Of a DNA stretch of 4,078 nucleotides, positions 3,001 to 4,078 are shown in pieces. Numbering within the stretch: the stretch's first letter is position 1; each line of letters opens with the position of its first letter. Made by a program: the position numbers. This stretch comes from a virus (Duplodnaviria; Heunggongvirae; Uroviricota; Caudoviricetes), in the IMG/VR virus record IMGVR_UViG_2541047122_000024; one strand, written 5' to 3'.

Positions 3001-4078
3001 AATTAACGACGAGCTGTACCTCTCAATTTCGAAGCTGCAGGAGCATGCAGCACTGGTCTACAAAATTTTTTGCATTTCAGAAAGTAATGACGCCCGCGAG
3101 TGTGCAGCTCCGGGCGCCGTGGCGTGTCGTGACTGTGGAGAAACTAACGCATGAACAGTTTAACAACACACTACCGTCGCTCGCAACTGATTGCACTTCC
3201 TGTACCGGGTGGAAAAGCGAAGGTGGAGTATTGCTATGCAGTGAATGTACCAGGTGACAGGGAAATTGTAACCCACAGCTTTGCAGAGTGGGCTGTGGGT
3301 GATTTCAACAGGCAAAAGGAGACAGTCCTTTGCGACAAGTTAACCGCTGGTTCAAAGATCACTACGGAGTGCCCGTCAGAGTCATTCGTTGGGAACCGGA
3401 AACACAACGGGTTATCTACCTCCGCGAAGGCTATGAGCATGAGTGCTTCAGCCCGCTCGAACAGTTTCGTCGTAAATTCAGGGAAATAGAGGTCGGTCAT
3501 GAGCACTAAATTAACCGGCTATGTATGGGATGGTTGCGCTGCGTCAGGCATGAAGTTATCCAGCGTGGCAATTATGGCCCGCCTGGCTGATTTCAGTAAT
3601 GACGAAGGTGTGTGCTGGCCATCAATTGAAACCATTGCCCGCCAGATTGGCGCGGGGATGAGCACCGTCAGAACGGCTATCGCACGGCTGGAAGCAGAAG
3701 GCTGGTTAACGCGTAAGGCGCGTCGCCAGGGTAACCGCAATGCGTCGAATGTTTATCAGCTTAACGTTGCGAAGCTTCAGGCAGCGGCATTTTCTCAACT
3801 GTCAGATTCTGACCCGTCAAAATCTGACGCATCAAAATCTGACCCGTCAAAATTTGATGCGTCGAAATCTGGCAAAAAAGCGGGTTTTCACCCGTCAGAA
3901 TCTGGCGGGGATCCGTCAGTAAAATCAAAACATGATCCGTCAGATAAAAAACTGAACCGCCCCGGAAATCCTGGAGACTAAACTCCCTGAGAAAGAGGTA
4001 AACAGGATGACTAAAAATACTCTTCCCTTGTAGTGGTGGCTGAAGGCATGATGATTGTAGTGGCACACTGAATTTGGC

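Follow-up and report, generated by a model that had tools for sequence, protein, structure and literature searches.

What interrupts the replication initiator gene of this prophage, and where did the sequence beyond the interruption come from? The window (the whole 4,078-nt stretch of viral DNA that was analyzed) ends in a series of insertion sequence (IS) ends, which the first-pass annotation, made from the DNA sequence alone, had taken for nested or compound insertions or an IS-mediated deletion in this prophage. Our comparisons point to a different origin for the last part of the series: the junction between its second and third elements is the same as one fixed in plasmid pO157 as an old scar of three IS elements.

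Source contig and prophage context

The window is the entire draft contig AVRL01000004.1 (assembly GCA_000462365.2) of Escherichia coli strain Bd5610_99, and the record ends at position 4078. Searching the literature for the WGS accession and the strain name gave no relevant result. The contig contains the immunity and replication region of an SfII/SfIV-like prophage (Table 1). Positions 1-3952 were 99.9% identical to a prophage of O157:H7 strain 7784, with three mismatches and one 1-nt indel, and in strain 7784 this prophage adjoins proA and tRNA-Thr.

Table 1. Features of the window, in order of position where coordinates are given.
Feature	Position	Strand	Evidence or remark
yfdR, 5' part			First in the gene order of the window
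cI-like repressor	1560-2252	-
cro-like gene, CII-like gene (ymfL type), DUF4222 gene, start of replication gene			In that order after the cI-like repressor
O-like replication initiator, 5' 454 nt (codons 1-151 and first base of codon 152)	3499-3952	+	100% identity to the intact 313-aa gene of strain 7784
160-aa fusion ORF	3499-3981	+	151 phage codons, one hybrid codon, 8 IS629-encoded codons, stop; GenBank ERC74686.1
Iteron-like repeat array, putative origin	3801-3942	+	Repeat search on the identical intact locus (L001 6402-6549, equal to window 3801-3948)
IS629/IS1203 left end (IS3 family), nt 1-70: left inverted repeat and first 16 nt of orfA	3953-4022	+	70/70 identity
ISKox3-like ISL3-family left inverted repeat remnant, nt 6-38	4023-4055	+	31/33 to ISKox3
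Two copies of TTGTAGTGG	4028-4036 and 4055-4063	+	Two copies in 0/200 shuffles
IS911-family (IS3 family) left inverted repeat, first 23 nt	4056-4078	+	23/23 to the pO157 element; contig end

The interrupted initiator and its putative origin

The intact gene of strain 7784 is 942 nt long, and identity with it breaks off exactly at 3952. Its product matched phrog_391 ('replication initiation O-like') end to end (residues 1-313, E=4e-135). Proteins of 313 aa annotated as O or 'primosomal' are 98.4-99.7% identical to it; they come from several isolated E. coli phages and from Shigella phages SfII and SfIV, the range for these two being 98.7-99.7% and the value for the SfII O protein 99.7%. Since the O proteins of these phages match at 313 aa, this is the functional length of the initiator. 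The 160-aa product of the window is thus not full-length, as the first-pass annotation had proposed, and the C-terminal domain is indeed missing, 162 residues being absent from the fusion ORF relative to the 313-aa homologues. The further claim that an IS629-like end interrupts the gene at 3953 and supplies its last nine codons and stop also held: codon 152 combines the phage C at 3952 with TG from the IS, residues 152-160 (LNRPGNPGD) are IS-derived, and so is the stop codon at 3979-3981. The N-terminal winged-helix domain (HTH_36, residues 23-70; Pfam E=1.5e-11) is retained in the fusion ORF. We infer that, whether the tail of the contig is real or not, this prophage copy would be unable to make a full-length initiator, and a reasonable reading of the truncated ORF is that the prophage is replication-defective and domesticated.

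Four tandem 15-bp units of the GTCAAAATCTGACnC type, partly palindromic, are present at 3801-3864, with related copies up to 3942, and these repeats encode the low-complexity linker of the initiator. An Rfam match to 'mir-5880' at 3800-3874 was dismissed as spurious, since the palindromic iterons produce it. The lambda ori sits inside gene O. Since the layout found here is the one expected of a lambda-type origin within an initiator gene, the array is plausibly the origin of the prophage. It is followed by an A-rich tract, GATAAAAAAC (3943-3951), which is the entry point of the IS. A 168-aa variant of the initiator from another sample (P0094) carried a frameshift in the same A-run (...DKTSRPTLRN...), and judging from these sequences gene inactivation seems to recur at this run.

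The intact homologue resembles lambda-type O proteins with an intragenic origin in having an N-terminal DNA-binding domain, an iteron-encoded linker and a C-terminal domain, whereas the ORF of the window is truncated after residue 151. In contrast to lambda-type systems, the intact initiator gene is followed not by a P- or DnaC-like loader gene but by a PerC-family regulator gene. The locus is a clean case of an initiator cut exactly at its putative intragenic origin, with the DNA-binding domain and the iterons left in place.

The IS629 end and the phage/IS junction

The identification of the interrupting sequence as IS629-like was borne out by a perfect match to the left end of copies annotated as 'IS3-like element IS1203 family' in O157 genomes, the terminal inverted repeat beginning with TG at 3953. 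The ATG of orfA at 4007 coincides with the annotated transposase start (IS nt 55), and the frame reads MTKNTLPL and then stops, so that the eight-codon orfA of the first-pass annotation stands. Its remark that the sequence beyond 4022 differs from IS629 was likewise correct; canonical IS629 continues after nt 70 with GTTTTT / GTTTTTCCCCC, but the window reads TTCCCTTGTAGTGG. No orfA/orfB transposase with its programmed -1 frameshift is encoded, orfA being represented by 16 nt only, which means either a remnant or a contig that departs from IS629 here.

The same phage/IS junction was present in two independent Logan read-set assemblies. One of these contigs (L005, from SRR710100) was 100% identical to window positions 319-3978, and SRR710100 is likely the read run of strain Bd5610_99. 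The Logan contigs, which derive from the same or sister reads, end 26-28 nt into IS629 and cover the junction itself, not the tail beyond it. In the other contig (L004 3258-3739, from SRR34127589, equal to window 3499-3980), an IS629-type end lies at the same base of a phage whose sequence departs from that of the window by 0.9%; the phage part has 22 substitutions, among them six synonymous changes within the initiator gene. The IS629 of this contig is a different isoform, with G rather than A at IS nt 14. An IS629 at the same base of a diverged phage could mean that the site is an insertion hotspot or that the insertion spread by recombination.

The insertion is rare, with three contigs from about five samples. 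None of 5,426 complete E. coli genomes had an IS at this site of the initiator gene, the best matches all ending at 3952, and exact-pattern scans of the GTDB species-representative genomes, IMG/VR and JGI metagenomes contained no phage/IS629 junction. The right junction of a complete IS629 is predicted to read ...GGTTCA AAC CTTCTCG..., where AAC is the expected 3-bp duplication. A protein search with the C-terminal 162 aa for this junction, which would join the IS629 right end to AAC and the 3' part of the gene, did not find it; the matches were contig-edge fragments and unrelated truncations only, and the predicted IS-derived N-terminus (...HSPGKPGRFK-PSRPD...) was in none of them. Polymorphism of IS629 in O157 prophages is well documented (overview in PMC7175801, which summarizes the role of IS629), and strain-specific insertions of this kind are the basis of IS-printing typing. 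The insertion studied here resembles the strain-specific IS629/IS1203 insertions of O157:H7 prophages in its left end, in its position inside a prophage gene and in its occurrence in few isolates, and differs from them in that only 70 nt of the IS precede foreign sequence and the contig shows neither its right end nor a target duplication.

Composition of the tail

A third element, unrecognized in the first-pass annotation, lies between the IS629 end and the terminal motif of the contig. In a sensitive search, positions 4021-4058 matched the left end of ISKox3, copies of which start with GGGTCTTCCCTTGTTGTGGTGGCTGAAGGCATGATAATGG and are flanked by 8-bp target duplications. Compared with ISKox3, the window holds a fragment of 33 nt only, its tip reads ACTC rather than GGGTC, nothing of the element is present past nt 38, and neither a transposase gene nor an 8-bp target duplication was found. 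T4021 and C4022 are equally assignable to ISL3 nt 4-5 or to IS629 nt 69-70. The ISL3 fragment had no exact match in the GTDB species-representative genomes.

The terminal motif had been described as IS911-like and placed at 4055-4078. Its kind was correct and its start was not, since the match to the IS911-family tip begins at 4056. IS911 belongs to the IS3 family and transposes by a copy-out/paste-in mechanism. The 23-nt tip in the window is that of a 1,252-bp IS3-family element of pO157 (L002 4105-5356). Copies annotated as 'IS911 family' are about 91% identical to this element over about 1.25 kb; they have another base at the third position of the tip, and matches to them begin at element nt 4.

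The 9-bp direct repeat reported for this region is real as well, to judge from the shuffled sequences. The first copy is nt 11-19 of the ISL3 inverted repeat, where ISKox3 reads TTGTTGTGG, and the second is composed of ISL3 nt 38 and nt 1-8 of the IS911-like element. A target-site duplication was rejected on the grounds of this decomposition. Insertion of IS911 beside sequences like its own ends has been reported, according to references listed in PMC7986276, and a 9-nt mimic of the IS911-like tip, TGTAGTGGT, is found 27 nt upstream within the ISL3 remnant. End-targeted insertion of IS911 is a weak candidate for the cause of the repeat and fits poorly, the mimic lying 27 nt away rather than abutting the insertion point.

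The three-IS scar of pO157

The whole of 3953-4078 aligned at 96% to one site in about 289 pO157-type plasmids, including that of strain Sakai (AB011549 14207-14333), where it is located next to etpO and upstream of ehxC. In pO157, this scar consists of IS629 nt 1-66, nt 1-38 of an ISKox3-like inverted repeat with an intact GGGTC, and a complete IS911-family element. Over its full length, the 38-nt ISL3 piece matched the ISKox3 ends in more than 1,200 plasmids at 36/38. The pO157 copy of the IS911-like element is flanked by GAT (L002 4102-4104) and TCC (5357-5359) and has no target duplication. Because these flanks differ, the comparison points to an ancient adjacent deletion at the scar, which was probably mediated by IS911 and took away the remaining ISL3 and IS629 sequence.

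The tail of the window and the scar could be aligned at 126 of 127 positions. Both have the same three elements, which agree in order and orientation, and the ISL3/IS911 junction does not differ between them. Because this junction is shared, the 56-nt tail is a copy of the old pO157 scar and not the product of new insertions into a phage-borne IS629, and the earlier reading of nested or compound insertions in this prophage was not sustained. The two loci also differ. The left flank is a phage gene in the window and etpO in pO157; IS629 extends to nt 70 with canonical alleles in the window, whereas in pO157 it extends to nt 66 and has two private substitutions; and the window is without the GGG of the ISL3 tip GGGTC, the TC of which coincides with IS629 nt 69-70.

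The scar itself varies among plasmids. In pCEC96047_1 (NZ_AP026105.1; L010 3480-3630), it abuts a truncated katP rather than etpO, the etp region having been deleted up to the IS629 remnant. The scar is also polymorphic at the end of the ISL3 remnant, since the pO157 variants NZ_CP062750.1 (L011) and CP088061.1 (L012) read GATAAT, the ISKox3 allele, rather than GATGAT.

The hybrid junction

The tail is not a plain copy of either source. It joins canonical IS629 nt 1-70 to the ISL3 sequence from nt 6 on, with T4021 and C4022 common to both. Five differences separate the window from the pO157 scar, at 4006, 4011 and 4017-4020, and the window has the canonical IS629 state at each. The private alleles of the scar (C at IS629 nt 54, A at nt 59, and GGGTC) were invariant in all of the about 289 scar plasmids. 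Derivation of the first two from a diverged IS629 relative was rejected, these alleles being present only in the 289 scar copies. The hybrid junction, in which ...AATACTC is followed by TTCCCTTG..., contains words that are absent both from canonical IS629 and from the pO157 scar. No second example of this junction turned up among 5,426 complete E. coli genomes, the 72,556 plasmids of PLSDB, the GTDB species representatives, IMG/VR and JGI metagenomes. The sole record of a linkage between phage and scar is a short-read draft contig that ends 56 nt past the switch, inside repeats.

Proposed origin and its alternatives

The comparisons show that a copy of IS629/IS1203 inserted between 3952 and 3953, in the A-rich tract after the iteron-like repeats of the Bd5610_99 prophage, and that the tail after IS629 nt 70 is the ISKox3-like remnant joined to the IS911-family left end, as in the pO157 scar. 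From the alignments, we regard these two steps as very nearly certain. In a third step, the phage-borne IS629 would have recombined in the cell with the plasmid scar, with which it has 66 nt of the IS629 left end in common, 64 of them identical. The joint would lie at a 2-nt TC microhomology (IS629 nt 69-70, ISL3 nt 4-5) at the far edge of the homeology, and could have formed by homology-facilitated illegitimate recombination or by branch migration to the border of heterology. The outcome would be plasmid sequence, comprising the IS911-like element and possibly more, beside the truncated initiator. A reciprocal crossover between plasmid and chromosome produces a cointegrate, and we know of no report of such a cointegrate for pO157. 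Two observations support the recombination step: the hybrid words are in neither source and cannot be invented by a k-mer-graph assembler, which argues that they exist in the reads, and the scar acquires new left flanks in nature, as pCEC96047_1 with its truncated katP shows. The step is weakened because homologous recombination would seldom place a crossover in the last 2 nt of a 66-nt stretch of homeology and because the hybrid occurs in no other sequence. We give the whole chain, with recombination in the cell included, an about even chance. That the contig is correct as it stands and represents a real recombinant, in which part of pO157 is joined to an SfII-like prophage through the prophage-borne IS629, we consider rather unlikely, though not negligible.

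A plain, complete IS629 insertion would need no recombination at all if 4023-4078 were the scar of the strain's own pO157, attached to the phage contig during assembly, and the hybrid junction were an artifact that arose across the shared IS629 left end, for example through end extension that tolerates mismatches, consensus calling or polishing. Such an insertion predicts phage-anchored IS629 that continues ACTCGTTTTTCCCC / ACTCGTTTTTCC; a real phage-scar recombinant would yield AAAAATACTCTTCCCTTG. The window is a whole 4,078-bp draft contig that ends in repeats, and it follows canonical IS629 for as far as the two can be aligned (through ACTC) and then the scar, which is what an appended overhang of scar reads would give. 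The uniqueness of the hybrid and the ends of the Logan contigs, which stop before the tail and leave it unconfirmed, fit an artifact too, and the left end of the contig also has paralogous yfdR alleles in its first 54 nt, although that mosaic is equally explained by a genuine repeat boundary. The mechanics of assembly argue the other way. De Bruijn-graph assemblers cannot create junction words, and at a k above 53 canonical IS629 and the scar have no common k-mers and would be unconnected in the graph, while an overlap-consensus assembler would need the majority to flip within about 2 nt, and reads of the true locus running into IS629 should outvote those of the scar. An attempt to derive the assembler k from the contig ends was dropped, the numbers being mutually inconsistent (126 nt for 3953-4078, a fit of 4020-4078 to k=59, 23 nt of the IS911-like end, and 54 nt shared with a paralogue at the left end). 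We hold misassembly as a tentative possibility, short of an even chance.

Two further routes would place the three elements in the prophage by transposition. In one of them, an ISL3 element and then an IS911-like element would have inserted into the phage-borne IS629, with deletions afterwards, independently of pO157. Nested IS insertions are common in O157 and Shigella, and all three ends are in the order expected of nesting. An independent series of events would, however, have had to arrive at the arrangement of about 289 pO157-type plasmids, with the ISL3 sequence broken off at nt 38 and joined there to the first base of the same IS911-like element; it would not reproduce IS629 breakpoints only 4 nt apart (nt 70 and nt 66), and the ISL3 tip GGGTC, due from transposition, is absent from the window. 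We find this history scarcely credible. The other route is movement of a composite, bounded by the left end of the scar IS629 and the right end of an IS629 downstream in pO157, by an IS629 transposase acting in trans. The boundary at 3953 is the exact terminal TG of IS629, as transposition would leave it, and the 13-40 copies of IS629 per O157 genome could supply the enzyme, but the private alleles of the scar (C at nt 54, A at nt 59, GGGTC) would have traveled along, whereas the window is canonical at each. A composite of this kind is very unlikely.

Relation to known elements and significance

All four components of the locus are known, namely IS629/IS1203, an ISKox3-like ISL3 element, an IS911-family element and an SfII-type O initiator, and the unique hybrid junction is its only unusual aspect. 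The published pO157 sequence has contained the three-IS scar from its first determination on. Insertion of IS629 into O157 prophage genes is routine, strain typing already makes use of it, and the biological significance of the locus is accordingly small; it amounts to ordinary mobile-element wear at the end of a draft contig. The insertion marks a rare, strain-specific event at what may be a hotspot, given the different IS629 isoform at the same base of a 0.9%-diverged phage. If the recombination proposed here is true, the joined part of pO157 would comprise the IS911-like element as a minimum, and possibly also the neighboring enterohaemolysin operon or even the entire plasmid; the locus would then exemplify the natural capture of virulence-plasmid DNA into a prophage, or its integration at one. 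The locus also calls for caution with short-read contigs that stop within IS elements: their final few tens of bases can mimic recombination between repeat copies, or may truly record it, and should not be taken for nested insertions unless the reads themselves support this.

Other features of the contig

At the left end of the window, positions 1-54 have the paralogous yfdR alleles at positions 7 and 19, as in O157:H7 JEONG-1266 (L008), and from position 55 on the thrW-prophage copy is followed. This exact mosaic was in no complete genome, and it is either a repeat boundary or a point of prophage-prophage recombination. On the minus strand, positions 521-743 matched the full model (1-206) of the Rfam sRNA family STnc100 with E=3.6e-7, at 43 bits, which is under the gathering score of 47. 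The surroundings of this match are GC-rich and gene-poor, and PGAP calls a frameshifted hypothetical protein there in strain 7784. Relative to strain 7784, the window has an extra T in a T-run at position 1163; because the independent Logan contig L005 carries it too, this is a true difference between the strains and no sequencing error.
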